Below, in pieces: positions 10,538 through 33,509 of a stretch of DNA of 64,000 nt. The stretch lies in IMG/VR virus record IMGVR_UViG_3300045988_113151; one strand, 5' to 3'. A program made the position numbers and the translations under genes. Within the stretch, counting starts at the first letter, position 1. The number at the start of each line of letters is the position of its first letter. Source of the stretch: a virus. Under the pieces are notes generated by a model. The model was not told the origin of the DNA. It worked only from the letters and a program-made list of their open reading frames with translations, and ran no database searches.

Positions 10538-11083
10538 TTATGGTTTCCGTACTAGTATTTCCACATCTCCTATTACTTCACCACTATTTAATATAACAGA
10601 TGCTTGTTTTTGTGAAAAAGCAATTGTTTCAAGACCTTCATTTTTTCTAGTAGGTCTAGAACTAGACATATTTATATATTGGCTAGTATATTCTCCATCC
10701 ATATTACCGCCATATCTTAGAACATCAAAAAGCATATCAATTACATATTCATAGTTATTATTCCGAACAGCTTTATCCATAAAATCCTTAGTCATCCCAT
10801 CAAACACAGGATTAGAATAATTACCATTTGGAACTGATATAACATCCATAATTGTTAATGCTAAATCACGAAAACTTATATCTTTATAGTCACTAAACCA
10901 TAAGCATAACCATTTAAATCGCCGTCTTTTAGTATAGAAACGAACTGATCCATCATCATGAATTTCTATACTACCAACAACCTTATCACCCATCGTGATA
11001 TGTTTATAGACATACTTATTATTTAGTATAAAACGTAATAAGTCTTTATGAACTTCACTAATTTTTACTTCTGTGTTGTTCAT
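10538..11083 (-). CDS. hypothetical protein, 181 aa
   Basis: ORF track. Confidence 0.5.
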   Translation of the reverse strand: MNNTEVKISEVHKDLLRFILNNKYVYKHITMGDKVVGSIEIHDDGSVRFYTKRRRFKWLCLWFSDYKDISFRDLALTIMDVISVPNGNYSNPVFDGMTKDFMDKAVRNNNYEYVIDMLFDVLRYGGNMDGEYTSQYINMSSSRPTRKNEGLETIAFSQKQASVILNSGEVIGDVEILVRKP

Positions 11084-11094
11084 TTTTATTTATA

Positions 11095-11655
11095 TTAAAG
11101 TCCATATTGACGATAATATTCGTCACAGCTCTGCTGCTGACCTTTAATAAGTTCTTTAAGCATAGTCATCTGTGCTAAGAAATCATTAGCAAGTGCCTCT
11201 GCCTTCTCTGCTTCCTGTTTGTTACGGAAATTAGCTTCATCTGTCAATCGTTTCCGATCGGCAAAGAATAGCGGAGTCTGATTATTCTTAGCTCGAATAC
11301 ATGCTTCTTCAATTGCCGAATTATCTGTTGCTTCTGCAAAGAATTTCGGTTCTTGAACAATCTTAGCCCGTAATTCTGGCTTTTCGTTGAACTCAATGAA
11401 AATCTCATCATTAATAACAAGAAGTCGTTGAGATGACACAAGAACAGTGTTAACCATATATTTTAATAGTGGTTCTACTAACCGTGGATGTTGATTAGTA
11501 AGTTCCTTCTCACGATGAGAAAGATCAACATTGTCAACTTGCAAATAACAGATAGTCTTACCTAAAAGGCTACCCATATTACTTACTACCTTACGAGCAT
11601 CCCGTAAGCGTGCTTCAATTTTCTGTTCGTTTCCTTGATTATAATTATTTTCCAT
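11095..11655 (-). CDS. hypothetical protein, 186 aa, visibly higher G+C than neighbours
   Basis: ORF track; predicted coiled-coil-rich; lies next to the 2 kb ORF-free segment. Confidence 0.5.
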   Translation of the reverse strand: MENNYNQGNEQKIEARLRDARKVVSNMGSLLGKTICYLQVDNVDLSHREKELTNQHPRLVEPLLKYMVNTVLVSSQRLLVINDEIFIEFNEKPELRAKIVQEPKFFAEATDNSAIEEACIRAKNNQTPLFFADRKRLTDEANFRNKQEAEKAEALANDFLAQMTMLKELIKGQQQSCDEYYRQYGL

Positions 11656-13705
11656 TTTGATAAAATTTTTATTTAATTGCAGAACCCATCGTTCCTAAGT
11701 AACACACTAGCAGTTCTCTTAATTCAGTATAATTAATAGGCGTCTTATATCCTATCGCTTTTAAAAAGCTTAGAAATAATTATAGTAAATCTCTAATTCA
11801 ATAGATACTATACATATTACCATTATAAAAAATCTGATACAGTATGATAAAACTCGACATTTAATTCTTATTTACCTTCACTGATACTATTCTGATAACT
11901 TCTGCAATTAAGGTTGTTTGAAATTATTTGTTAATTCTCTGATATTTATTATCGTAGTTATATTCTAGAGCTCTTGGTAGAGGTGCATACAACAGGGACT
12001 CTAATGGTAAGAGATATATACCCCGTAAGATAATTGGTTTAGCTGATTATTTAAAGAGCCTAACAGTAAATACCTAAAAACGTGCTCTACTCATTTTTAT
12101 CCATTCGTCAGTTGAGTGCTGGGTTTCTGATACTGTATATTATATCTACCGAGACAGGGTAGACCTTTTGTCGACATCAGCGCTGCCGGTTTTGTTATGA
12201 GCTGTTTATGTTTCAAAACACCCACTCTATAGCCTTGTATTACTCACAGGCTGCGTGTACTTACGACTTTGTTCTTATCCTGCACATAATTCTAGGATTT
12301 CCACCTATCATCCCTTAATGGAGGGAATCAGTGTCACTTTACATATATTGTTGCGCAATATACTTTAAGTGGTTCTAGTGTTAGCAATTATATTGTACAG
12401 TCGAGGGTGGCTCGATATAGCTTTTAACTATACACTATACTACCATTGGACTTCCTCATTGCTTTAGTTGAACATGTTAATAATCTCACAAAAAGAAACC
12501 CTTACATATTAGACTTACTATCTACATTTAGTGTCAGTAAAGTGTAGCTGCTAAAATGGGGAATGCACAGATTATACTCCGATCTGCTTCGTCCTCTAGG
12601 TTAAAATATTTCACGACTTTCCTTACTGGTTGTAAGGCTCAATGTTTTTAAATATACAACGTTATCTCAATGTTGCCAACTCGAATTTGATCAGGGAGTT
12701 ATTTCTCCACTAGCTTTAGATTTTCTGTTTATACTAATTACTTCTAATCTATGATATAGAGTTTTCTGGCTCTTCATCCCATATCTACTTTATTTCCTAG
12801 TGCAAAGCACTTTAGGTTTATACTCATCTAAGTAGCAACTGAGTTTAATTATAATATTACTTAGTCCACACAATCCCATTAAACTGAGAATTATTTCTTG
12901 CAAAATACTTTAATTATACTTCCGATTAGTTATTAAATATAACATTACATATAGGCTTTATACCTAATCCAGTTAATCTATATTATATCCATCTTACTTA
13001 CAACGTAAGTTCTATATAATGATCATAGCTACTCAGCCAAAAGGCATGTAATTTACTACTCACTTATCATATAATTAAATAGTGCTATAATATTTATAAT
13101 TCTACCTTCATACATACTGCTTTAAACATTCTTTCTTTAATGCACACTTCCAATTTAAGCTTTCCAAAGGCACGTGTCAGTATGGAACACTATAGTAGTA
13201 TTTTTAGTAACTTTATAGCTACAAGGAAGATTTGGAGTCTACCTAGAATGCTTAACGATTCTATAAATACATATCTACTAAAGTTTGGAGCTTTAGTACT
13301 TTCTTTATCCTCGCACTTTGCGAGTTTGCGACTCGTGTAAGGTAACATTCCCTTTTGATATTCAGTTTGATAACTGGTATTCGAATGTATTAACGATACC
13401 TGGCATTGTTTAACTTCATAAATCTGCTGATTTAATCGTTGCGTCTTTAGTCACCAATCGGTTCTCACTGAGGATGTGCCACGCTCTTCCTCTTTCTCGT
13501 CATTTCTTCAGTCTTAAACAGTAAATTCGACATGATCAAGTTATTATACCTTCGTTCACTCAATAATAGTGGTAGCTATTATTCCAGCCTCTAGTATTAT
13601 GTACTGTTAATGCTTACTTTACTCAATTTCAGCATTCCTCTTCCTATTTGAATAGGAGCGTCTAGGCGAAGCAATTACGTTGCTAACGAATGCAGTTTAT
13701 AGCTC
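11656..13705. other. 2 kb ORF-free segment A: candidate structured non-coding RNA or long UTR
   Basis: The only track ORF is 66 codons (13140..13340, plus strand). TAA, TGA and TAG occur in every frame on both strands. G+C is higher than in flanking genes, and there are many local hairpins. Confidence 0.6.
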
Positions 13706-14128
13706 TTATTTCGCGCTTTGCTGCTCTAGTTGCGCGTCAGTTTTATCTTCACTGATAATATTTACCTTACATGTGTTAAGGTCTAGAAATCCGACATAGT
13801 TAGTTCCTTTTACTAAGTCTATTGTTTTATGTTTGATATCATACGAAGATACAAACGAAATAGGGTCAAATACAGTAGCATCGAATTCATCTAATTTCTT
13901 AGATAGTTCTTCTACTCTATATTCTAACTTCTTAATAAGTAAACTAGATTGATTAAGTATCTCATTAATTTGTTTGTTAAACTCATGAGATACTTTACCA
14001 TCTTCTATGACAATTCTAGTAGCAGAAGAAGCTTTAGACAACTCTATTCTGCTGTTCTTTAAATTGCGAATAACTTCTGAAGTACGAAGCATGTGTTGAA
14101 CGACTAGTCTATTTCTCGTCATCTTCAT
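13706..14128 (-). CDS. hypothetical protein, 140 aa
   Basis: ORF track. Confidence 0.5.
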   Translation of the reverse strand: MKMTRNRLVVQHMLRTSEVIRNLKNSRIELSKASSATRIVIEDGKVSHEFNKQINEILNQSSLLIKKLEYRVEELSKKLDEFDATVFDPISFVSSYDIKHKTIDLVKGTNYVGFLDLNTCKVNIISEDKTDAQLEQQSAK

Positions 14129-14519
14129 TATTATTCCAAATTAAAGGTTCTACATTATTTCGTATAATTACCTTGTTCTCCAATACGAGAGGAGCAACAC
14201 GATATGGCGCAGGTCGATTATCCACTACGACAGGCTTCTCAACTATACGCTCAATATACTTTTTAATTGTTCGTATACTATCTTTCTTAACAATGTTTAC
14301 ATTAGCAGTAGCTGTACCTTCTACTGTAACTTCTTCATTCTTAAGGTCAATATTAATAGTAGATGGTAAGATTGTTTCAACAGGTCTTGGAACATCTACA
14401 TAACGAGGGACAGGAGCCAGTTCTGCCTTTGGTGCAGTTTGTTTAAGTGCATCATAGCTAACAAAGCTTCCGAAAGTTAAGATACCTAGTATCATTAACA
14501 TATTAATACGGTTATTCAT
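14109..14519 (-). CDS. membrane-anchored hypothetical protein, ends at TAG
   Basis: N-terminal hydrophobic helix MLMILGILTFGSFV. The stop codon is TAG (plus cta 14109-14111). Confidence 0.5.
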   Translation of the reverse strand: MNNRINMLMILGILTFGSFVSYDALKQTAPKAELAPVPRYVDVPRPVETILPSTINIDLKNEEVTVEGTATANVNIVKKDSIRTIKKYIERIVEKPVVVDNRPAPYRVAPLVLENKVIIRNNVEPLIWNNNEDDEK

Positions 14520-14525
14520 ATTTGA

Positions 14526-16073
14526 TTATGCTTTAGAGTATGCAGATTCATCAATGTAATTTGCTAATCGTTTTACAGGATCTTTATACAATCCAGCTAT
14601 TTCAGTAAGTTTATTTTGAACTAGCTGAGTAGAATCTCCTAGGTTATACATATTATTAATTACAGAGAAAATCTTATCTCCTTTAATTTTATTTACAAAG
14701 TCTTTATTGTACTTACCTTCAATCATTCCTTCAATAGTTACTGGAATATTCTCTTCTTTATTAGCAATCTTTTTGATTATTTCATCAGTAGATGATTTGC
14801 TTAGCATATCATTAAAGATTGTAACAGAGGCGTCCGCTCCAGTCTTTTCTGTAGCAAATTCTTCAGCACTATTAGCAAGCATTACCTTAATAAAATCAGC
14901 AATCTGTTGTTCATTATATCCAAGACCTTCAAAGTCTTTATACAACAAACTGTGTGCAATATATGGAGAATTATTTCCAATCAGAGCACCAGATGCTTTA
15001 CTCATTAAACCTTTCAAACAAAGTGTTTTTGTTTGATTAAACTTACTGTACATTAGAGCTAAAGTAGTAGTAGGATTATCAGATTTAACTTCAAATGCTT
15101 TATTTGCCCATTCAATAGCATCTTTAACATTCAAAGCCATCCGTTGTGTAGCGTTGATTTTAGTACCTTCTGCAATATTACTACGACTTAGAATTCCTCT
15201 AAGAGCGTTAAGCTTTTCTTCTTCAGTCAGCTTAGGATCTGCTTCAGGTATTTCAAACTTGGTTGCTTTAGCATCTGCTTTAGCAGCCTTTTTTACATCT
15301 TCAGGTACTGTTTCAAATTCAAGATTTAATTGTTTTCCGTCTTTAGTTGGTAAGGCTTTAACATCTACTCCATACATATTTAAGAATTGATTCTTAATCT
15401 GTGGATATACATCTTTAGTTATAGTAATACCCTTAAGAATAGACTTACCTTCTTGTTCTAGTTGCATTGCATATAACAAACACAACTGACACAATCCTCC
15501 ACTATATACTTCCTTCATTGCGGCAACTTGTTCGCGAGGCAAGTCTTCGTCAGTATCAATATAAGTTTTACGGATTAGTGATAACAATTCTACTTGATGG
15601 TTTTCATCAATACGTTCCTTATTTGCAATCATAGCTACTCCACGTGTAATATCAATAGGTAGTTGTTTTTCGGTCTTTTCCTTGTTGATATCTACAGTCT
15701 CTGGAATAATAGTTTCAACTTTTTCTTCCTTTTTCTTTTCTTCCTTCTTCTGAGATTTCTCAGATTCAGGTTTTTTGTCTTCTTTTTTACCTCCTTCTTT
15801 TTCTGGTTTTACACTAGCCTTAGTTTCCTCAGGCTTCTTCTCCGTTTTCTTTTCTTCTTTAGAAGTATTTTTAACTTCTTCTTTTGGTTTTTCTACAGGC
15901 TTCTTTTCCTGTTCTTTAGGTTTATTACTTGGTTGAACTTCTTCTTTCTTTTCAACCTTTTCAGTCTCTTTTTCTTTTGTAGGTTCTTCTACTTTTACAG
16001 TATTAACCTTATTTTCTTTAATCTTTGCTGCTAAGTTAGATTTGTTTTCTTTTCCTTTATTACGTTTTGACAT
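14526..16073 (-). CDS. hypothetical protein with a Lys/Glu-rich disordered N-terminal third, 515 aa
   Basis: ORF track. About 130 aa of KE/KP low complexity are followed by a globular region. Confidence 0.55.
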   Translation of the reverse strand: MSKRNKGKENKSNLAAKIKENKVNTVKVEEPTKEKETEKVEKKEEVQPSNKPKEQEKKPVEKPKEEVKNTSKEEKKTEKKPEETKASVKPEKEGGKKEDKKPESEKSQKKEEKKKEEKVETIIPETVDINKEKTEKQLPIDITRGVAMIANKERIDENHQVELLSLIRKTYIDTDEDLPREQVAAMKEVYSGGLCQLCLLYAMQLEQEGKSILKGITITKDVYPQIKNQFLNMYGVDVKALPTKDGKQLNLEFETVPEDVKKAAKADAKATKFEIPEADPKLTEEEKLNALRGILSRSNIAEGTKINATQRMALNVKDAIEWANKAFEVKSDNPTTTLALMYSKFNQTKTLCLKGLMSKASGALIGNNSPYIAHSLLYKDFEGLGYNEQQIADFIKVMLANSAEEFATEKTGADASVTIFNDMLSKSSTDEIIKKIANKEENIPVTIEGMIEGKYNKDFVNKIKGDKIFSVINNMYNLGDSTQLVQNKLTEIAGLYKDPVKRLANYIDESAYSKA

Positions 16074-18834: not shown

Positions 18835-18908
18835 TTCACGGAGCAGGATTCGAACCTGCACTCATTTCCCATATCCGTTCTGTGTCTAACCAATTGCACC
18901 ATCCGTGA
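18835..18908 (-). pseudogene. tRNA-like element with a non-folding anticodon arm
   Basis: Perfect 7-bp acceptor TCACGGA/TCCGTGA, D-arm-like GTGCAATTGGTTAGACAC and canonical T arm GCAGG-TTCGAAT-CCTGC. The 17 nt at the anticodon-arm position (GAACGGATATGGGAAAT) cannot pair. Confidence 0.45.
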
Positions 18909-19764
18909 CCTGCTTTTTACGACATTAGCTTAGCCGTTGACTTATCGTATTACGCTGCAATACGAGTATAGTCTGTTACAAAAGATTTGTCATTTCTGAC
19001 GTCTATTGACCTATTCATTTTCATCCTCGCTGTCAAATCCATAATACCCCATTAGTAGGATTTTCACCTACTTTGAAGCTTTGCGACATTTAGTCTAGGA
19101 GTGGTTTATACCCTTGCCAAGAGGAATCGAACCTCTATGCTTCTGACCGTGGAGTATGAGGGAGTCGAACCCTCGTCCAAACGATTCATCCAATGACCTA
19201 ACAGTCAATATAGTAGTATATAGTTAAATCAATAACTATATACTTAAATATGAATAAACTGTAGGTAAGTATAATAAAAATAATAATCGGAAATATACTT
19301 TAAATACAGAGGCAGATAACTTACTATATGTTTAAAGATTTACTTCTATATCTAAGAGTAGCATCAACTATTACTTTATTATAGGCTCTAGGCTCGCTTA
19401 CTCTACAGTTTTAAATAGGCTTTGATTGCATGTATAGTATAGCAAGTGCTCATGTAAAACAGACTCGATTGAACTATAGGCATAAAGCTCTCTATACATA
19501 TACAATTTGATTTTGTGTACTGTTTATCGTCATAAGACTATTCATAGTACAAACTTCGCCAGTTTTATACCCTCGTGGCTTATAGCTCTTGAGTTTAGAA
19601 CGATCTTTAGGCTCATGATCAGTGGCACGTTTTTTACCCAGCAAAATGGGTCAAGCCTCTATTGCTTGTTGTCAATTCAACTGTGTACAACATCCTGCAT
19701 CAAAAGACGACTTATCATGTTCTATGTACAGATTTGTCATAAAGACTTCTTCTTGGGTTGTCGA
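18909..19764. other. ORF-free segment B
   Basis: No credible ORF on the transcribed strand. It contains tRNA T-arm-like hairpins and repeated 10-11-mers. Confidence 0.5.
19120..19174 (-). ncRNA. two adjacent T-arm-like hairpins (tRNA remnants?)
   Basis: Minus sense: GAGGG-TTCGACT-CCCTC (19158-19174) and AGAGG-TTCGATT-CCTCT (19120-19136). No matching acceptor or anticodon arms were found. Confidence 0.3.
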
Positions 19765-20190
19765 TTAATAACGCCAAGCGTCATCACCGTAAATATCACG
19801 TTTTCCTTTTTCAATAGCTTTATCTCGGGTTTCTTCAGCCTTTGATATAGCACTGTCATAGGTTTCGTAATTACCTGTGGTTTCGAGGTCTTTTCTTGCT
19901 TCACTCACTTCTTTCAGATAGATTTTCTGAGCTGCTTCTTTTATACGAGCCATACGAAGACCCTTCAAAGCATCATCTTCTTTGCTTTCTGAATTACGCA
20001 AGCGCTGTTCAATTCGTTGAGTTTCTTCTTTCAGTTTACGTTCTGCAATATTATTCTTTGCAGCTTCAATTGCTTCTTTAGAACCAACTTTCTGTTTTTC
20101 AGATTGAGCAGTAATAGCAGCTTCAACATCGAATTCAGCACACAAAACGTTTGCGCCTAAGATAGCGCTTGTAAAATTTACATTTTTCAT
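19765..20190 (-). CDS. hypothetical protein with signal-peptide-like N-terminus
   Basis: ORF track; MKNVNFTSAILGANVLCA followed by a charged helical region. G+C is higher than in neighbours. Confidence 0.5.
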   Translation of the reverse strand: MKNVNFTSAILGANVLCAEFDVEAAITAQSEKQKVGSKEAIEAAKNNIAERKLKEETQRIEQRLRNSESKEDDALKGLRMARIKEAAQKIYLKEVSEARKDLETTGNYETYDSAISKAEETRDKAIEKGKRDIYGDDAWRY

Positions 20191-20241
20191 AATTGTTTGA
20201 AATTTTAATTGTTAATAATTGATTTATTTAAGAAATGAATA

Positions 20242-20379
20242 TTAATAGTATATCTCACTAAGTTCATTACTGAGTTCTTTATTTTCCTCTGTAAGATATT
20301 CAATTTCTACTTGAGATTCTAATATAATTTCTATTAGTTCTTCTTTTGTTTCTGTTTCTAATTCTTCTTGTGTCCACAT
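20242..20379 (-). CDS. small acidic coiled-coil ORF, 45 aa
   Basis: Hand translation MWTQEELETETKEELIEIILESQ...; below the track length cut-off. Confidence 0.3.
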   Translation of the reverse strand: MWTQEELETETKEELIEIILESQVEIEYLTEENKELSNELSEIYY

Positions 20380-20643
20380 AGACTTTTAAATTTAAGAGAG
20401 TTATCTGTCTATTCGTACGTCTTATTCAACAGAAGCCCTTTTCCTTCTCCTGACCTATTACTAGGTTGACCGTTGTATAGTCCGTAGTACTCTATCTGTT
20501 AAGATTCCTTTAGGGGTTTGGCTTTATAACTCTCTAGGCTTAACTTCACCATAACTTAATAATTAAGTTAAAAACAAATTATCTGGCATGATAATATTAG
20601 TTGTTATAATAAATATTACTTTATTACTACACGCATGGAGATT

Positions 20644-20766
20644 TTACCTTCCACGTTTATAAGGCTCTAATTTCTTATGCCTTATTTTCTTTTTAGATTG
20701 ATACTCGTAAGCTTTTTCAGATTGCTTAGATCCTGGAAAATGAGATTCCTTGTAAGTCTTTCCCAT
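20644..20766 (-). CDS. small basic ORF, 40 aa
   Basis: Hand translation MGKTYKESHFPGSKQSEKAYEY...KRGR. It starts 1 nt after the stop of 20768..21148. Confidence 0.3.
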   Translation of the reverse strand: MGKTYKESHFPGSKQSEKAYEYQSKKKIRHKKLEPYKRGR

Positions 20767-20767
20767 A

Positions 20768-21148
20768 TTACATATCCATTATATAATACATTTTAGCTGC
20801 TAACTCTGGTATATAACTAGCTTTGATATTAGTTAGATAACTAAGATCAGATGTACTAGGTGTCATTAATATACGCAAAGCTTCTTTGTTATTAGTACTA
20901 ATAATAGATGCTTTCAAATAGTCTTTAAACTTACTAGAACTTGGATGATATCCGGATTTAGCTTCAAATTGTTTAACAAGTTTAACAAATTCAGAATCTT
21001 TAGCATTTAATCTTTCTTGAGATGCATCTTCCTCTGACAATAATACAGGTTTAGTATTAAAACCAATTTGTTCAGAGAATTTAACCATAGCATTTTTAAT
21101 ACTTGATTCACTTACCTCATTAGGTATGCATATTACGACTACTTTCAT
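20768..21148 (-). CDS. hypothetical protein, 126 aa
   Basis: ORF track. Confidence 0.45.
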   Translation of the reverse strand: MKVVVICIPNEVSESSIKNAMVKFSEQIGFNTKPVLLSEEDASQERLNAKDSEFVKLVKQFEAKSGYHPSSSKFKDYLKASIISTNNKEALRILMTPSTSDLSYLTNIKASYIPELAAKMYYIMDM

Positions 21149-21158
21149 AATTTTGATA

Positions 21159-21419
21159 TTATTTAATTTCAGTTAGTTTACTTTTTTTATTTGTATTACG
21201 ACTGTTAACATCAGCGTATTTATCTCTATTGTGTATTTTACCACAACGAATACAGAAGACTCTATCTTCTCCATTTTCTGATGGAGAGATTCTAGTACCC
21301 CAGATATGACCATATTTAATACAGTCAATTCTTCTTAATTTCTCTATTTCTTCTAGAGTTGTTCTTTTGCTACACACGTTAGCTAATTTCATAAAGAACT
21401 TTGTTAAATATTTTCTCAT
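21159..21419 (-). CDS. small zinc-ribbon-like protein
   Basis: CIKYGH...CIRCGKIH Cys/His pairs. Confidence 0.45.
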   Translation of the reverse strand: MRKYLTKFFMKLANVCSKRTTLEEIEKLRRIDCIKYGHIWGTRISPSENGEDRVFCIRCGKIHNRDKYADVNSRNTNKKSKLTEIK

Positions 21420-21844
21420 TTACATATAAATTAATAGTTTAAAAGTTAATATTAATGATGGCGTCTCATAGTTGCAGCTATGAGATTGTAATCAGTTTAA
21501 TTGAAAAAGATTTAAAGTTGATACAGTATACTGCAATATACTTACCAGTTCTCCAATAGGATAGCTTTTGTTAATAGAGCGAACTATTTTACATTTTTGA
21601 CTCTCACATATTTAAACACATGCAGAAAAGCTGTCAAACCAATCTTACTGTGTACATGATTTTAACGCCCGCACGATCATAAATACATTTAATCAATAGG
21701 TTATTTATAATTTGCATACGTATGTCTCACTAATTTTAATCAACTATCATAGTATTTACTTACGCCCCACATGTTTGTCATCTTCTGAAGGAGCTATATT
21801 CCTGTTTCTCAACTGTAATATAGCAAAGACAATTTTAAAATAAA
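21420..21844. other. ORF-free segment D
   Basis: No ORFs. It contains copies of the ACATGATTTTAA and GCCCCACATGTTTGTCA blocks shared with segment E, and the hairpin 21464-21485. Confidence 0.5.
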
Positions 21845-22270
21845 CTAAAATGAAGATTTTAAAGAGTCGTTCTTTGGTTCAGGTATACTTGGTTTAGGCA
21901 TACTGTCTGGTAAATATTGTTTTTGCACATCCATAGCATGTTTAATAATCTTATCATAGAACTCTTTATTTGTAATATAAGTATTTACAATATCTTGAAT
22001 AGATATTTGTGTTCCTTTTGTTACAAGTATTTGAGTAACTATTTGAGTAGGCATATCTAAGTATACACTATCACAATAGCGATAAAATCTCATTTCTTCT
22101 CTTTCTTGCAATACTTCCTTTACAGAAGGAATGTATTCTTGTTCAATAGAATCCGTATCAGGGATATCATTGATTGCTTGTGGTTTTTTCACACAGCTTG
22201 TTAGTATAGTTATTAACATAACTATTGCTAAAATAGCAAATAATTTTAAAGATTTAAATTTTTCTTTCAT
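21845..22270 (-). CDS. putative lipoprotein, ends at TAG
   Basis: Signal peptide with lipobox-like ILTSC. The stop is TAG (plus cta 21845-21847). Confidence 0.55.
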   Translation of the reverse strand: MKEKFKSLKLFAILAIVMLITILTSCVKKPQAINDIPDTDSIEQEYIPSVKEVLQEREEMRFYRYCDSVYLDMPTQIVTQILVTKGTQISIQDIVNTYITNKEFYDKIIKHAMDVQKQYLPDSMPKPSIPEPKNDSLKSSF

Positions 22271-22294
22271 TTTTGATAATGTTTTTAATTAATT

Positions 22295-22486
22295 TTACTG
22301 TAACATTGAATAGATTTCAGCAGCACTTTCTTTAACTTCTGCTATAACTACTTCTTCTTCGCCTAAATTAGTATAAATATAAGTACAGTCTTCTCCATCA
22401 CAAATAGATGAAATTATTTCTGTATTTATTACTGTATTACCTAGCGTTTCTGGATCAGCGTTAGTTAATAATATAAATTTCTTCAT
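22295..22486 (-). CDS. hypothetical small protein
   Basis: ORF track. Confidence 0.4.
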   Translation of the reverse strand: MKKFILLTNADPETLGNTVINTEIISSICDGEDCTYIYTNLGEEEVVIAEVKESAAEIYSMLQ

Positions 22487-22603
22487 TGTGGTATAATATT
22501 ATAAATTATTACTAATAGTGATACTAATATATATAAACTAATCATAATAGTTTTATGATTGTCTATAAATTGTAACATTTTATCTAATAAGATGTCACAA
22601 ATA

Positions 22604-22879
22604 TCAGGGTTTGAATCTGTCTTCATACTTCTCACTGTTTTTATTATCTAAATTGTGATTAGCAGAAGCTCCTAGTTCGTATATAAATCTAATTACGCAG
22701 AATATGCATAACGTGATTATAATAACACACCACCATTTGTAATAGTCATATAGACTACCATGCTTTAGCTCAAAGGCTAAACTTTCATCTAAAACTGCAT
22801 CAATATTAGCTTTTAACCATAGTGTTACTATAGTAAGAGCTACTATAAATCCAGCTAAAAAATTGATTAAACTTTTCAT
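22604..22879 (-). CDS. two-TM membrane protein
   Basis: Two hydrophobic segments in the ORF-track translation. Confidence 0.45.
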   Translation of the reverse strand: MKSLINFLAGFIVALTIVTLWLKANIDAVLDESLAFELKHGSLYDYYKWWCVIIITLCIFCVIRFIYELGASANHNLDNKNSEKYEDRFKP

Positions 22880-23100
22880 TCTTTAATTTGATTTAATAGT
22901 TGATTACTAGAATTCTTCCAATTAGAAAGTAATTCATTAAATTTATCTCTTAATTCTAACAATTGTTCTTTCTCTTCATCTGTTATACATTTATAATCAG
23001 ATTCAAGAGTAATAAGTAAAGAAGATAGATTACATTTTAGACCAAATAATCTAAAATAAGTAAAATTCCTATACCTATTTAGCTTTGATTTCTTGTTCAT
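22876..23100 (-). CDS. hypothetical small protein
   Basis: ORF track; 4-nt overlap with the downstream gene. Confidence 0.4.
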   Translation of the reverse strand: MNKKSKLNRYRNFTYFRLFGLKCNLSSLLITLESDYKCITDEEKEQLLELRDKFNELLSNWKNSSNQLLNQIKE

Positions 23101-23407
23101 ACTTTGCTATTTTATTATAAATTATATTCCAATAGTGAATACCTTTTATTGAATCTTTCCAAGAAAAAGTAGTTATTATATAAAATATTACATAATTACT
23201 TCTTTTTTTATATAGGTTGAGACCTCTATAATTATAATTACGAAAACTCATATTATAATGTATTACTTCGGAAACAAATTCACTCAAACAATTAAAATGA
23301 ATTAAAGCGTGTAACAAGTTATATGACATGTTTGTCATAATGTGATGTCTCATATCCTGCTTAATTCGTTTTAAATCTTTGTCTGTATAATCTACAATAT
23401 TTTCCAT
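23075..23407 (-). CDS. hypothetical protein with FSW...G..YW motif, ends at TAG
   Basis: TTFSWKDSIKGIHYWNIIYNKI parallels GGFSWSSTKEGFEYWDNILGKI in 18538..18819. The stop is TAG (plus cta 23075-23077). Confidence 0.45.
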   Translation of the reverse strand: MENIVDYTDKDLKRIKQDMRHHIMTNMSYNLLHALIHFNCLSEFVSEVIHYNMSFRNYNYRGLNLYKKRSNYVIFYIITTFSWKDSIKGIHYWNIIYNKIAKYEQEIKAK

Positions 23408-23814
23408 AATTACTTTTTAATAAGGAATACTAAGTTTTGATTTGTACAAATAGCAAGATGTGAATACTTTCTAATAAATTTCTTTTTCATATTGATTATG
23501 TTTTAATGGTTAGTAAATTCTAATAAAATGAAGATTGCTACTTTCACAAGCAACAACCTTCTATAAACCAAATTTTAATAAAGAGAATGGCAAATGTAAC
23601 TAACATCTGAGGACTAGGATACGCTAATCCCTATAAATGATGCAATTAAAAATAGCGAAGAGTTACTAACGTAGTACAATATAGTTTGCATCATACATGA
23701 TTTTAAAGTCTGCACTAATGCTAGTTCAAGTGAGCTGTATAAATCAATATACATTTCAGACTAGACATAAGCCCCACATGTTTGTCAAGGATTCTCACCT
23801 TAATAACTTATAGT

Positions 23815-23937
23815 TTAATTACCATTAATAATGTAGAAGATATAACCTACAGCAAATAATGCTATAAGAACATAAATAATTGCAACTCCTACAAATGCAA
23901 TTATTCTTTCAAATAAATCGTCATCGTCTTTTTTCAT
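23815..23937 (-). CDS. small single-TM protein, 40 aa
   Basis: Hand translation MKKDDDDLFERIIAFVGVAIIYVLIALFAVGYIFYIINGN. Confidence 0.35.
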   Translation of the reverse strand: MKKDDDDLFERIIAFVGVAIIYVLIALFAVGYIFYIINGN

Positions 23938-24192
23938 AATTTAATAATTTTATAAATTTGCATTTTACACCTAAAACTTATAAGGGTAATAGGACTCGAA
24001 ATTAATCTATCCTAAAACTTTATTTATTACCTACTAAAAGAAGTAGAACTTATAAGAAACTGGTGTCCTCAATGTCTTGGAAGGTTATTGAGTTTTTTAA
24101 ATATCTGTCTTTCCAGATCGCCAATATTAGTTTATACTCCTAATATTAGAGTTTACTATCTTTAATACCTAGAATAAGATAGCAGATTGTTT

Positions 24193-24232
24193 AAAAGAAT
24201 AGTATAATCTTCCAAAACTATACTATTCTTTT
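24193..24232. terminator. bidirectional terminator-like hairpin
   Basis: 14-bp perfect stem AAAAGAATAGTATA/TATACTATTCTTTT with a 12-nt loop. The symmetric A/T runs give a U-tail on either strand. Confidence 0.5.
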
Positions 24233-24884
24233 GTATTATCAACACTCACTATTACACACAGTAGCTAATTGTGTTTATTTAGTGACTAGATTCATAGTGG
24301 AAATGATTCCTTATGAGAATCCTACTTACTAGCTAGACTCTTGCGCTCGATATTGACGTTGTGGCAATCAACAACAATATTTTTCACAATCGAGGGTCTT
24401 ATTTCTCGGCAACTCCTACTTAATTTAAATTTGAATATATTTATATATCCCAAGTAATCAACAGATATTTGGAGCACTATTTTACATCATTGTTTTCACG
24501 CTGATTGCTCGTTTTTGATCTTTTAATCAATATATACTTGATCAGTATGTATATATCTATGCTTCTTACTTTCTGAGCGAGTTTGCGATTCTCAGATTTC
24601 ATATTTTCTATTACCACGCATTGGCTAATTAGAAGAGCCTTAATTAAATTAAAATAACATAACTTGCACAGTTTGTTTAGTTATGACTAACCAGCCTGTG
24701 ACTAACTTCTGGTTAGTCTTAATTTAATTACTAGTCTTTACAGCGCTAGCTCTCTGTTTAGTTATTATAAAGATAATTAAATTAGAAAAAATTGCTATAA
24801 TGATGACTCAATTGTAGTGATATGCAGAAGCGATGGACACTTTCATGTCCACGCTCTGATTGACGAATAAGCTATATATTAGTA

Positions 24885-33402: not shown

Positions 33403-33474
33403 TCTCCTGTGATGTAAAGGTAACATATTGAGCTCTAACCTCAAAATTGTCCGTTCGAGTCGAGACCAGGAGGA
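33403..33474 (+). tRNA. amber suppressor tRNA, anticodon CUA
   Basis: Acceptor 33403-33409 pairs with 33467-33473 (7 bp, terminal U.G). U8, then D arm ATGT-AAAGGTA-ACAT. Anticodon arm TTGAG-CTCTAAC-CTCAA with CTA at 33435-33437. T arm GTCCG-TTCGAGT-CG(A)GAC with one bulged A. Confidence 0.75.
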
Positions 33475-33509
33475 CTAATAAAAAATAATTTAATGTTACT
33501 ATCACAAAT

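Follow-up and report, generated by a model that had tools for sequence, protein, structure and literature searches.

No viruses are more abundant in the human gut than Crassvirales, whose genomes are densely packed. Which function is served by a segment of 2,050 nt in the genome of such a phage that is devoid of genes? The segment, [11656-13705], lies in the window, the whole stretch of 64,000 nt that was analysed, from the virus record IMGVR_UViG_3300045988_113151. The original prediction saw in it a large structured RNA that is kept for its function. Here, we compared the segment with its counterparts in related phages. It is non-coding and syntenic, it is under stronger purifying selection than its neighbours, and it contains covarying helices from about position 214 to about position 2033 of the RNA, where the minus strand is taken as the RNA sense and the plus coordinate is 13706-p for RNA position p. 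This evidence of non-coding character, conservation and covariation favours the leading idea of the original prediction: the gap is probably a gene whose product is a structured non-coding RNA of very large size (about 1.9-2.0 kb), which would form a new family in Suoliviridae crAss-like phages and their relatives. A full-text search of the literature found no description of the element.

The gap, its flanking genes and its conservation

The 2,050-nt gap, in which the candidate gene of ~2 kb would occupy the minus strand, is real. It is bounded by two minus-strand ORFs, an upstream gene of 140 amino acids [13706-14128] and a downstream gene of 186 amino acids [11095-11655]. The plus-strand ORF of 66 codons that had been noted is at [13140-13340], and only two further ORFs of at least 40 amino acids are present, both on the minus strand, [13190-13348] (52 amino acids) and [12097-12225] (42 amino acids). 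The three stop codons occur in 6/6 frames, with 4-39 copies each, and the longest run without a stop measures 258 nt under the standard code, 354 nt if TAG is read through and 417 nt if only TAA terminates. Coding is not rescued by any single stop reassignment, as had been claimed, and double reassignment fails too. The stop-codon REASSIGNMENT was rejected as an explanation: TAG is read through in the late genes of the phage, yet the gap stays closed under every one- or two-stop code. A protein-coding gene, recoded or decayed, was likewise discarded, with a longest frame of 258-417 nt, no codon-position bias (maximal phase fraction of 0.40-0.45 in the gap versus 0.57-0.80 in the adjacent genes) and zero genes called inside the gap by external, independent pipelines. 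The gap had also been described as relatively GC-rich and less purine-skewed than the flanking genes. Its GC content of 33.2% is slightly over the 26-33% that is typical of the window, but the flanking coding DNA is equal or higher, with 35-37.5% at [11000-11600] and 33-35% at [14000-15800], and other 2-kb bins reach 36-37%. The difference in skew was not found, the GC and AT skews in the gap matching those of the flanks in sign and size.

The phage is crAss-like, as proposed, and its nearest annotated relatives are Suoliviridae. The name of early or replication block that was given to this part of the genome is reasonable, because the block carries a sigma factor and a DnaB-like helicase; in cr6_1, a DNA polymerase gene lies downstream of the homologous gap. 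Homologs of the downstream 186-amino-acid protein all have 184-188 amino acids and none is fused to the upstream ORF. The upstream protein of 140 amino acids is without a match in Pfam, PHROG and the PDB sequences. The AlphaFold models of the 186-amino-acid protein (pLDDT 74) and of a 515-amino-acid protein have no Foldseek match in the PDB (best E of 0.6 and 0.2, respectively), and searches of the neighbouring proteins against Pfam, PHROG and PDB sequences and with Foldseek gave no pointer to an RNA partner. Elsewhere in the window, there is a tRNA-Arg at 8.5 kb, and a tRNA and a permuted tmRNA are found at 18.8-19.2 kb. Separate small ncRNAs are clustered at 18.8-24.4 kb of the same genome.

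At least 16 lineages have a gene-free gap of 1.85-2.5 kb in the same syntenic position, co-oriented with the flanking genes; they comprise Afonbuvirus, Buchavirus, Culoivirus, Aurodevirus and at least 10 more, including one contig from activated sludge. Four annotated subfamilies of Suoliviridae are represented, in which the locus is unannotated or mis-annotated. The gap is present in ~100 independent assemblies, with a modest number, about 16, of truly independent lineages. In a close pair of genomes, the identity of the gap is 0.910 versus 0.813/0.863 for the flanking genes, and two more independent close pairs gave 0.915 versus 0.882/0.854 and 0.808 versus 0.789/0.685. The core of the gap is ~90% identical to that of cr6_1, where the adjacent protein is 32% identical. 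Indels are frequent (61-197 indel columns per pair), and the order of about ten motifs is collinear between lineages. In the distant members L249 and L330, the 5' domain is retained and the hairpin H27, described below, is undetectable. Near the start of the next gene, cr6_1 and Culoivirus share 93% identity over a 45-nt segment, the remainder being unalignable, and a lineage-specific hairpin is located directly before the conserved AAUCAAAAAGGA leader and the start codon of this gene. Intact proteins in relatives, or a lack of conservation or covariation, had been named as outcomes that speak against a functional RNA. In all lineages examined, the homologous region is gene-free and without codon periodicity, the region is conserved above its flanking genes, and covarying helices were found.

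The element was also sought outside these lineages. The 5'-domain pattern, used on genome contigs in search of cellular homologs, gave mostly chance matches; the independent H27 model was passed by one of the 80 loci checked, and this locus is a phage-sized contig binned with Segatella copri. Lineage L119 hints at a host from Segatella/Prevotella. A loosened pattern on viral contigs gave mostly chance matches among those listed, and after filtering there were at least 4 real additional loci and 1 false one.

Conserved loops on covarying stems

Six helices over ~1,200 nt pass formal covariation tests with 7-14 distinct sequences, among them five hairpins with conserved loops. Pairs were counted formally, against shuffled and slid controls, in the H27, B1, B2, CUCCAAA and UGGAAAU hairpins. 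With one exception, the helices that have formal support are local hairpins, and the supported pairing of longest range covers ~230 nt. The features are described below on the minus strand, in the 5' to 3' direction of the RNA.

The 5'-proximal hairpin UCCUAUU-CA-AAUAGGA [13642-13657] is located ~50 nt past the upstream stop codon and is present in the window and in lineage L010; elsewhere, its counterpart, recognised by eye, is a UCYCAUUAG loop on varying stems. It may belong either to the RNA or to the tail of the transcript that comes from upstream. Hairpin B1 [13470-13492], GAGGA-AGAGCGUGGCACA-UCCUC, has a conserved loop on a covarying stem. In an alignment of 10 lineages built from sequence alone, 100% of its cells are paired and the covariation is 0.844 versus 0.271 when shuffled (0/500) and at most 0.204 when slid; B1 is retained with new stems in held-out lineages. 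Hairpin B2 [13449-13469], AGU-GAGAACCGAUUGGUG-ACU, has a near-invariant 15-nt loop and a stem that differs in nearly every lineage (84% paired versus 56% shuffled; covariation of 0.729 versus 0.253, 0/500; at most 0.164 when slid), with further stems, e.g. CCCU/AGGG, in L249, L330 and L333.

Two hairpins have the loop CUCCAAA. The first one [13276-13298], UACUAAAG/CUUUAGUA, has the same loop on other stems in relatives, with 9-bp stems of differing sequence in L235, L236 and L237, and also in L040. The second one [13224-13244], AGGUAGA/UCUUCCU, was tested in 9 lineages: 90.5% of cells are paired versus 60.0%, 7/7 pairs are changed on both sides, the covariation is 0.948 versus 0.313 (0/500), and the hairpin was confirmed in held-out lineages. 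Loop-loop pairing of CUCCAAA with the segment UUGGAG of the B2 loop was considered and rejected, since the two are complementary in some lineages and their covariation is inconsistent. Further along the RNA, a conserved 37-nt block [12786-12822] comprises the hairpin CCUAAAGUGC-UUU-GCACUAGG [12796-12816]. The block is 94.6% identical in Aurodevirus cr114_1 and cr125_1 and is conserved in cr6_1; being invariant, it is uninformative for covariation.

The self-complementary motif AACAUGUU [12471-12478], a tentative feature, lies in a linker that appears to be unpaired. A palindrome of 8-12 nt is found at this spot in 11/15 lineages, in the three sequences AACAUGUU, UGUUAACA and UAAUAUUA, compared with a background of 3.2%, and it is missing or displaced in L235, L236, L237 and L092. 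The motif GAGGAAGUCCAAUGG [12443-12457] corresponds to (U/G)GGGAAGUYCAAUGG in relatives and is kept in Afonbuvirus, Buchavirus, Aurodevirus, L235, L236 and L237; RNAalifold predicts that its GAGG pairs with CCUC of [12403-12406]. The two-tier hairpin H27 [12335-12371] is composed of an outer stem CACUU/AAGUG, a 3x3 internal loop, an inner stem GUAUAUUG/CAAUAUAU and the pentaloop CGCAA. It is predicted by RNAalifold, and its core of 22-27 nt is identical between very divergent lineages. In a covariance-model alignment of 14 distinct sequences, 90.2% of H27 cells are paired versus 68.7%, and 11/12 pairs are changed on both sides versus 5.0 +/- 1.2 (0/500). In L010, L119, L235 and L236, H27 is replaced by other hairpins with GNRA-type loops.

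The hairpin UCCCU-CCAUUA-AGGGA [12311-12326] was recognised by eye and by RNAalifold, and its stem becomes UCCUU/AAGGA in cr6_1 and UCGUU/AACGA in Buchavirus. It is followed by the hairpin UAGG-UGGAAAU-CCUA [12293-12307] and then a conserved AAUWUUnGUGC motif. In 7 distinct sequences, 96.4% of the cells of the UGGAAAU hairpin are paired versus 79.0%, with a covariation of 0.548 versus 0.196 (0/500), and L235 has a new stem, AUGAG/CUCAU. The segment [12203-12225] has a conserved GUGGGUG and then the hairpin UGUUU-UGAAACAU-AAACA, also found by eye, in which the stem variants are CGUCU/AGACG in Aurodevirus and UGCUG/CAGCA in L236 and L237. The segment [12145-12188] consists of two adjacent hairpins, CGGCA/UGUCG [12172-12188] and UCUACC-CUGUCUC-GGUAGA [12145-12163], with the stem variants CGGUA/UACCG and GUAAC/GUUAU in cr6_1 and UCUAUC/GAUAGA in L010. 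The CUGUCUC loop is found on unrelated stems, at a different position in the order, in Buchavirus, L040, L049, L105 and L092.

The 3' domain [11673-11911] is closed by a long-range helix. Its arms, [11900-11911] and [11673-11684], form a perfect 12-bp inverted repeat, are 215 nt apart and covary, from AAUUGCAG/CUGCAAUU to UAUUGCAA/UUGCAAUA in L236 and CAUUAUAA/UUAUAAUG in L237. The terminal hairpin GAAC-GAUGG-GUUC [11681-11695] has the stems GAAC/GUUC and AUGC/GCAU. It overlaps the 3' arm by 4 nt in the window, so that the two may be alternatives.

The hairpins listed in the original prediction do occur in the sequence, but most of them differ from those that are backed by comparison. Those at [12621-12637] and [13310-13335] are not retained in cr6_1, and that at [12401-12415] is identical in three close lineages but not retained in Buchavirus and Aurodevirus. 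The one at [12796-12816] belongs to the 37-nt block, conserved but uninformative.

Covariation was also measured over the whole gap. When the structure was predicted from one sequence and then checked against the substitutions in a relative, compensatory double changes in close pairs numbered 13, 12 and 37 versus 2.5, 2.2 and 10.9 expected (0/1000 permutations). Pairing is restored by double changes in 62/79 cases in the gap versus 101/195 in coding controls (Fisher p = 4e-5). In four held-out lineages, 9/9 of the conserved-loop occurrences tested are flanked by 5-9 canonical pairs (background probability of at least 5 pairs, 0.01), and these flanking pairs are new compensatory pairs. Counting helices in a six-lineage alignment, made with MAFFT and RNAalifold, was rejected as proof. 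The count was decisive versus column shuffles, but the 6.9 'covarying helices' per kb in the gap are matched by the 5-6 per kb of coding controls, and because of this similar helix density the global fold of the RNA is not established. As a minor point, the consensus energy is -46 kcal/mol per kb in the gap versus -16 to -21 in coding controls.

Strand, known RNA families and rival explanations

Covariation of Watson-Crick pairs does not tell the strands apart, and in the close-pair test the antisense strand had a similar score. Several other observations are suggestive of the minus strand as the sense strand. Gap and flanking genes share one orientation in all lineages, GNRA-type loops are legible on the minus strand only, the closing pair of H27 is G-U in 10/14 sequences, and the consensus energy is -133 for the sense versus -125 for the antisense strand. 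The ratio of G-U to A-C cells is 29:16 in the validated helices (p = 0.07, for cells that are not independent) and 86:71 on single-sequence MFE structures, which is not significant. No element-specific promoter or U-tract terminator was found in the sequence, and no conserved internal promoter-like or terminator-like signals were found in the gap across lineages.

Known RNA families were searched as the original prediction had suggested. With Rfam cmscan over the whole window at gathering thresholds, there is no match in [11656-13705]. A scan of [11400-14000] with Rfam 15 at E<=10 gave only noise (let-7, snoRNAs and C0719, with 12-22 bits versus gathering scores of 38-60), and in seven other lineages, at E<=1, Rfam 15 matched only tRNAs outside the gap. 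None of the Rfam models of GOLLD, ROOL, OLE, raiA, HEARO, introns and RNase P matches the gap; given this negative result, the element is not a member of GOLLD or ROOL. ARAGORN and Rfam found no tRNA, tmRNA or RNase P in the gap. Three other candidates were discarded. The segment GAGGAAGUCC resembles CR-I of RNase P, but on reading no complementary GGCUU-type partner for P4 was seen, and there is no Rfam match. For H27 as a group II domain V, the geometry is wrong, with no AGC triad, no 2-nt bulge and no Rfam match. Regularly spaced direct repeats of a CRISPR or other repeat array were not found in the gap.

The element has similarities to several known systems. Like GOLLD and ROOL, it would be very large, structured, non-coding and phage-encoded, with conserved loops on covarying stems and tRNA-type genes within a few kb; unlike them, it occurs in Crassvirales infecting Bacteroidales-type hosts and, at ~2,000 nt, is about 2.5-3.5 times longer. 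ROOL has about 600 nt, as has OLE, a cellular RNA of extremophilic Firmicutes that acts together with its dedicated proteins OapA/B/C. The element resembles OLE as a large structured ncRNA with conserved loops, but it has no Rfam match to OLE and candidate partner proteins were not found among the neighbours searched. GOLLD has more than 800 nt, and the conserved loops of GOLLD, ROOL and OLE make intra- and intermolecular kissing or A-minor contacts in homo-oligomers, for which palindrome-switching loops served as evidence; OLE RNA dimerises via symmetric loop contacts (PMC12286853). For the RNA of the gap, the palindrome at [12471-12478] is only a weak hint of homo-oligomerisation, because it is not universal. 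Self-association through it looked promising in the first 11 lineages, was weakened by the held-out ones and is kept as a lead only.

The pRNA of phi29, a part of the packaging motor with about 120-174 nt, is trans-acting and self-associates by intermolecular loop-loop pairing. By analogy, the RNA of the gap may likewise be a phage-encoded, trans-acting folded object capable of self-association, although it would be more than 10 times larger, it is in the replication/early block, and no link to packaging was found. RNA II of ColE1-type plasmids has about 550 nt and needs an R-loop at a defined origin. The putative transcript of the gap would similarly be structured, non-coding and beside replication genes; it differs in having no skew switch, no origin-like repeats and a loop-centred conservation over 2 kb. 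Group I and II introns share with the element the size range, a multi-domain architecture, short near-invariant hairpins and an occurrence in some crAss-like phages. In contrast to them, it has no Rfam intron match and no intron-encoded protein, and it does not interrupt a gene, because both flanking ORFs are complete, the upstream one with a stop codon and the downstream one with a start codon of its own, and no homologs have them fused.

Four explanations were weighed against a single giant RNA. The structure could belong to a cis-acting leader with no trans function: a very long, folded 5' UTR, or a spacer between cistrons in the leftward operon, by which the genes downstream (186 amino acids, 181 amino acids and others) would be controlled in their processing, stability, translation or antitermination. 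The gap is on the strand of its flanking genes in all lineages, the search for a separate promoter or terminator was negative, and the structure reaches the lineage-specific hairpin just ahead of the leader and start codon of the next gene, where the 45-nt segment is conserved. We consider a leader unlikely nonetheless, as 2 kb with more than a dozen conserved loop motifs far exceeds known needs of bacterial or phage leaders, the most conserved parts, H27 and the B domain, are 0.7-1.8 kb from the downstream start codon, and the RNA evolves much slower than the downstream protein. It also seems improbable to us that the gap holds a battery of independent small or medium structured RNAs, head to tail, and no single giant RNA. 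About ten motifs are collinear, the length is held at 1.85-2.5 kb without conserved internal signals, and one helix closes a domain of ~240 nt; on the other hand, most supported helices are local hairpins, modules repeat (two CUCCAAA hairpins), the CUGUCUC hairpin changes its rank between lineages, H27 is undetectable in L249 and L330 although both have the 5' domain, and the same genome has a cluster of separate small ncRNAs. Between such a battery and a single RNA the difference is one of degree.

An element that acts as DNA, such as a replication origin (transcript-primed or with single-stranded DNA hairpins), a packaging site or a protein-binding control region, is in our view very improbable. 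It would suit the neighbourhood of replication genes, with the DnaB-like helicase downstream and, in cr6_1, the DNA polymerase, as well as the partly palindromic sequence of 22-27 bp that is identical in very divergent lineages and the 8-nt palindrome; moreover, RNA and single-stranded DNA alike give Watson-Crick covariation. The gap, though, has no iterons or tandem repeats, and its direct repeats are short and at chance level. The polarity switch in skew (cumulative minimum) is at about 26 kb, away from the gap, which at 33% GC is not an AT-rich unwinding region and is not below its flanks. The 'invariant' box is swapped in L010, L119, L235, L236, Buchavirus and Aurodevirus while a hairpin with a GNRA-type loop stays, and therefore an RNA or single-stranded structure fits and a duplex protein site does not. 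Furthermore, 2 kb of covarying stems is unlike known origins or pac sites. The origin and the packaging signal, both offered as alternatives in the original prediction, find no support in a region with no iterons and no skew switch, where helices change sequence yet keep pairing. To a decayed gene, an intron or an assembly artefact we give almost no weight, this explanation being effectively refuted already. Large ORF-free stretches of phages are sometimes pseudogenes or self-splicing introns, and Yutin et al. are said to have described introns in some crAss-like groups in 2021. Two GenBank records annotate an ORF of 145 amino acids on the opposite strand of the homologous region, but it is absent from cr60_1 of the same genus. 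The same gap recurs in about 100 independent assemblies and is more conserved than the adjoining genes without codon periodicity, and the absence of a group I/II match, with complete flanking ORFs and unfused downstream homologs that always have ~185 amino acids, speaks against an intron.

A candidate giant RNA of Crassvirales

The explanation that we prefer is a single structured RNA. The large ornate phage RNAs, taken as a functional kind and not as a homology family, are phage-encoded, exceed 500 nt and have many covarying helices with conserved loops or pseudoknots. The element agrees with this description: it is in a phage genome, is ~2 kb long and has six helices that pass pair-count tests and others seen by eye. 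We infer from the sequence that the gap is transcribed, where the RNA would end and that it would be one molecule; the notion of one 2-kb molecule is based on collinear motifs, on a total length that is conserved and on the lack of signals inside the gap. The RNA would be read leftward, from the minus strand, with or alongside the flanking early/replication genes, and it would consist of numerous local hairpins with one or more long-range closures of a domain. Its stem sequences would be free to change provided that pairing persists. Its loops and linkers, GAGAACCGUnUGGnG, AGAGCGUG..AA, CUCCAAA (twice), Y-GCAA, UGGAAAU and GUGGGUG, are nearly invariant where proteins are ~30% identical, and invariant loops on variable stems are the mark of an RNA whose function lies in its fold. 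At these loops, the RNA may pack by tertiary contacts or bind a partner, be it a protein of the phage or host, a different RNA or more copies of the same RNA. We favour a mechanism in which the RNA, similar in kind to the phage-associated GOLLD and ROOL, would be a trans-acting scaffold or assembly that is produced in infection.

A more specific proposal is tentative, and we regard it as possible rather than probable. Through its invariant loops, a single RNA machine of ~2 kb may build up a particle of higher order, from RNA only or from RNA and protein, such as a cage, a scaffold or a ribozyme, and this particle may perform a step of infection that is done by proteins in other phages. The RNA would be produced by a phage family that ranks among the most abundant of the human gut, and in size it would exceed every other structured non-ribosomal RNA known in bacteria and their viruses.

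In the current GenBank records, the locus is blank or bears spurious ORFs, and a covariance model of the family would mend the annotation in hundreds of gut-virome genomes. One phage family spends 2% of its genome on a non-coding element that evolves slower than the neighbouring proteins. GOLLD, ROOL and OLE were only lately shown to form RNA-only nanocages and dimers; if the element is one RNA, it would be several times larger than any of them. It would then offer a fresh target for cryo-EM and for probing the roles of giant RNAs and, as an unrelated and larger case in another order of phages, would make giant RNAs a recurrent phage strategy and not a curiosity.

A conserved non-coding gap and its genomic setting

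The gap, 11656-13705, lies between the minus-strand ORFs 11095-11655 (186 aa) and 13706-14128 (140 aa). Its longest ORF has 66 codons, in agreement with the original prediction of an ORF-free 2-kb segment between two leftward genes. All three stop codons occur in all frames of both strands, and no stop-free run exceeds 258 nt. Reassignment of stop codons has to be considered here because the phage does recode them. It had been proposed that no single reassignment would rescue coding, and this extends to double reassignments, as neither opens the gap (at most 354 nt when TAG is read through, and 417 nt when TAA is the sole stop). The compositional claims fared less well: the supposedly GC-rich gap has 33% GC versus 33-37% in the directly adjoining coding DNA, and the purine skew, which was said to be lower, is the same in the gap and its flanks.

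The nearest annotated relative, the crAss-like phage cr6_1 (Suoliviridae, Afonbuvirus), has a 2,080-nt unannotated gap at the matching place. Over a core of about 300 nt the two gaps are ~90% identical, while the protein adjacent to the gap has just 32% identity over 78 residues to its cr6_1 counterpart. A core 22-mer, GTATATTGCGCAACAATATATG (minus strand), used as query, retrieved 79 IMG/VR loci and 17 metagenome loci (one of them on a contig from activated sludge), and also led to annotated genomes from four Suoliviridae subfamilies. Further lineages were gathered via homologs of the flanking protein, a MAG collection and a 5'-domain pattern. In every real case, the motif is found in a gene-free gap of 1.85-2.5 kb that lies between the same gene families and shares their orientation. 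In deeper lineages, the alignable remnants are short collinear blocks only. In three independent close pairs, the similarity of the gap was 0.910, 0.915 and 0.808, versus 0.813/0.863, 0.882/0.854 and 0.789/0.685 for the two flanking genes, respectively. Moreover, substitutions in the gap are without codon periodicity (0.40-0.45 versus 0.57-0.80 in genes). The gap is therefore non-coding and under purifying selection.

GenBank leaves the locus blank, save for spurious-looking CDSs in four crAss-like genomes. A 145-aa "hypothetical protein" (cr109_1 gp34, L109:3440-3877; cr113_1 gp20, L110:3440-3877; L-numbers denote loci or contigs with the homologous gap) falls within the homologous RNA region, where it runs on the opposite strand, and is missing from cr60_1, a member of the same genus. 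A 53-aa one (cr114_1 gp096, L113:4112-4273; cr125_1 gp066, L114:4112-4273) lies over the 5' domain that holds hairpins B1 and B2. Both are probably spurious calls.

Several carriers of the element can be described further. L119 (JAJWOH010000001.1), a phage-genome-sized contig of 101,563 nt, was binned in a Segatella copri MAG, and this binning is a weak hint that its sub-lineage infects Segatella/Prevotella. L092 (ENA UOYA01017245, 4,241 nt), from an activated-sludge metagenome, has the 27-mer of hairpin H27, the UGGGUUGAAUUCCCA hairpin and a CUCCAAA hairpin; the element may thus not be confined to gut phages, sewage input being the other possible cause. The IMG/VR contigs L031 (195,667 nt), L048 (200,391 nt) and L273 (194,412 nt) have about double the usual genome length of ~98-100 kb and are probably concatemer or duplicated assemblies, not larger genomes. 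The final ~45 nt of the gap (CUCCGUAGGUGGAAUCAACCACGGAAUCAAAAAAGGA...) are 93% identical between cr6_1 (L001) and cr55_1 (L111, Culoivirus; E = 2e-13), and outside this segment the two elements are almost unalignable. The segment may act as a conserved signal in processing or in translation initiation of the downstream gene; it may also stem from recombination.

The gap has a gene for an ECF-type sigma factor on its upstream side and one for a DnaB-like helicase on its downstream side; the remaining members of the block are without assigned function, and the neighbouring proteins give no clue to the role of the RNA. Directly upstream of the locus, a 515-aa protein (14526-16073, minus strand) is kept across the family. 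AlphaFold predicts disorder for its first ~215 residues, a lysine/glutamate-rich stretch in the family consensus; the last ~300 residues are confidently modelled as an all-helical domain, for which no PDB match was found.

Known structured RNAs are densely clustered at 18835-24417 of the minus strand, where ORFs are few and small. They comprise a tRNA (18835-18908), a permuted tmRNA (18950-19209; ARAGORN extent 18859-19239, tag VRNDKSFVTDYTRIAA), RAGATH-9 (20394-20547), two Hatchet ribozymes (21654-21792 and 23695-23807) and RAGATH-14 (24181-24417). All of these, and the window's tRNAs, lie outside the gap, and the genome is unusually ncRNA-rich even apart from the gap element. A suppressor tRNA with anticodon CTA (33403-33475, plus strand) is labelled tRNA-Pyl by ARAGORN. 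With TAG readthrough, the summed length of ORFs of at least 150 aa in the plus-strand block 26000-64000 rises from 6,028 to 11,196 aa and the maximum ORF length from 594 to 1,543 aa, while the minus-strand early block hardly changes (4,327 to 4,985 aa). The plus-strand late genes thus appear to be TAG-recoded, because readthrough nearly doubles long-ORF content there and barely moves the early block.

Covariation and the likely sense strand

In the close-pair test, structure was predicted from a single sequence and substitutions were then scored in a relative. Compensatory double changes numbered 13, 12 and 37, versus 2.5, 2.2 and 10.9 expected (permutation, 0/1000). Since substitutions cluster, a better statistic is how often a double change restores pairing: 62/79 in the gap versus 101/195 in identically treated flanking coding DNA (Fisher p = 4e-5).

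Explicit helices, all given for the minus strand, were scored with shuffled and slid-partner controls. H27, a two-tier hairpin at 12335-12371, has 90.2% paired cells (shuffled 68.7%) and a covariation of 0.515 (0.140) in a covariance-model alignment of 14 distinct sequences; 11 of its 12 pairs changed on both sides, versus 5.0 ± 1.2, and RNAalifold independently predicts the same hairpin. The remaining helices were scored on sequence-only alignments. Across 10 lineages, B1 (13470-13492) and B2 (13449-13469) have 100% and 84% paired cells, with covariations of 0.844 (shuffled 0.271) and 0.729 (0.253), respectively. The CUCCAAA hairpin at 13224-13244 reaches 90.5% and 0.948 (0.313) in 9 lineages, with 7/7 pairs changed on both sides, and the UGGAAAU hairpin (12293-12307) 96.4% and 0.548 (0.196) in 7 distinct sequences. 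For each of these five, 0/500 shuffles attain the observed covariation and the slid-partner controls collapse.

In a prospective check on four lineages outside the helix definition, 9/9 tested occurrences of a conserved loop were enclosed by uninterrupted runs of 5-9 canonical pairs whose sequences were new (background mean 0.63, P(>=5) = 0.01). The "invariant" H27 sequence is swapped in six lineages for other hairpins that retain a GNRA-type loop, the loops observed being CGCAA, UGCAA, UGAAA and CCGCAA. The long-range helix that closes the 3' ~240 nt (11673-11911) also covaries, from AAUUGCAG/CUGCAAUU to UAUUGCAA/UUGCAAUA and to CAUUAUAA/UUAUAAUG. Judged by these comparisons, supported structure spans RNA positions ~214 to ~2033 of 2050. 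For a six-lineage MAFFT and RNAalifold consensus, the energy was -133 kcal/mol with 212 pairs, and 20 helices scored as "strongly covarying"; column shuffles reached -13, 45 and 2, respectively. Applied to the genes beside the gap in these genomes, the pipeline yielded a similar helix density, at an energy per kb 2-3x weaker; this count, non-discriminating at ~45% identity, was dropped as evidence, and no global secondary structure is claimed.

Two further observations concern the same region. When 12293-12363 is compared by eye with the AAUAUUCGUGC motif of L013-, L040-, L049- and L092-type lineages, a conserved CAAUAUUCG just 3' of the UGGAAAU-type hairpin could pair with the H27 5' strand (GUAUAUUG) at 7/8 positions, possibly as an alternative conformation. 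A hairpin with a CUGUCUC loop (12145-12163; also in Buchavirus, L040, L049, L105 and L092) has unrelated stems and a shifting order, after the GUGGGUG motif in the window and before it in the other lineages, which points to a module that is mobile or has arisen more than once independently.

Watson-Crick covariation reads alike on both strands. The gap has the orientation of its flanking genes in every lineage, the loops are GNRA-type on the minus strand only, and a G-U pair closes H27 in 10/14 sequences. G-U cells outnumber A-C cells by 29 to 16 (p = 0.07), and the minus strand has the slightly better consensus energy. Together, these are suggestive of the minus strand as the RNA sense.

Alternative readings, possible mechanism and class

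On this comparative evidence, the gap probably encodes a structured functional RNA. A replication origin, packaging site or protein-binding control region, acting at the DNA level, is highly improbable: iterons are absent, the skew switches at ~26 kb, away from the gap, and the stems alter their sequence yet keep their pairing. Still more remote is a decayed gene, an intron or an assembly artefact, since both flanking genes are complete and never fused, no Rfam intron matches, and the gap is better conserved than real genes. A cis-acting leader of the leftward operon would fit a structure that reaches the hairpin directly before the conserved leader of the next gene; as the whole story it is unlikely, given the size of the element and the distance of its most conserved parts from the start codon. 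Several small RNAs in place of one are a reading of similar, low probability; in its favour, most helices are local, modules repeat and may change position, and distant members retain the 5' domain without a recognisable H27.

For a single structured RNA, the most likely mechanism, held tentatively and at somewhat less than even chances, is that it would act in trans as a scaffold or assembly. A variable stem with an invariant loop recurs in at least 8 instances across the 2 kb, which argues that the loops are functional surfaces; they would serve as contact points for tertiary packing or partner binding. One linker carries a perfect palindrome of 8-12 nt in 11/15 lineages, in three differing sequences. 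In OLE and GOLLD, palindrome switching of exactly this type has served to argue for symmetric contacts between molecules (PMC12286853). Self-association of the element is only a lead, because the palindrome is missing or displaced in four lineages.

A search of Rfam 15, as had been recommended with GOLLD and ROOL in mind, returned no family match in any lineage scanned, these two included, and no description of the element was found in the literature searched. The element resembles GOLLD, ROOL and OLE in kind only and falls outside all three families; it is 2.5-3.5x longer than these and is carried by a different phage order. We regard it as a new class of giant phage RNA, unrelated to the three and much larger.
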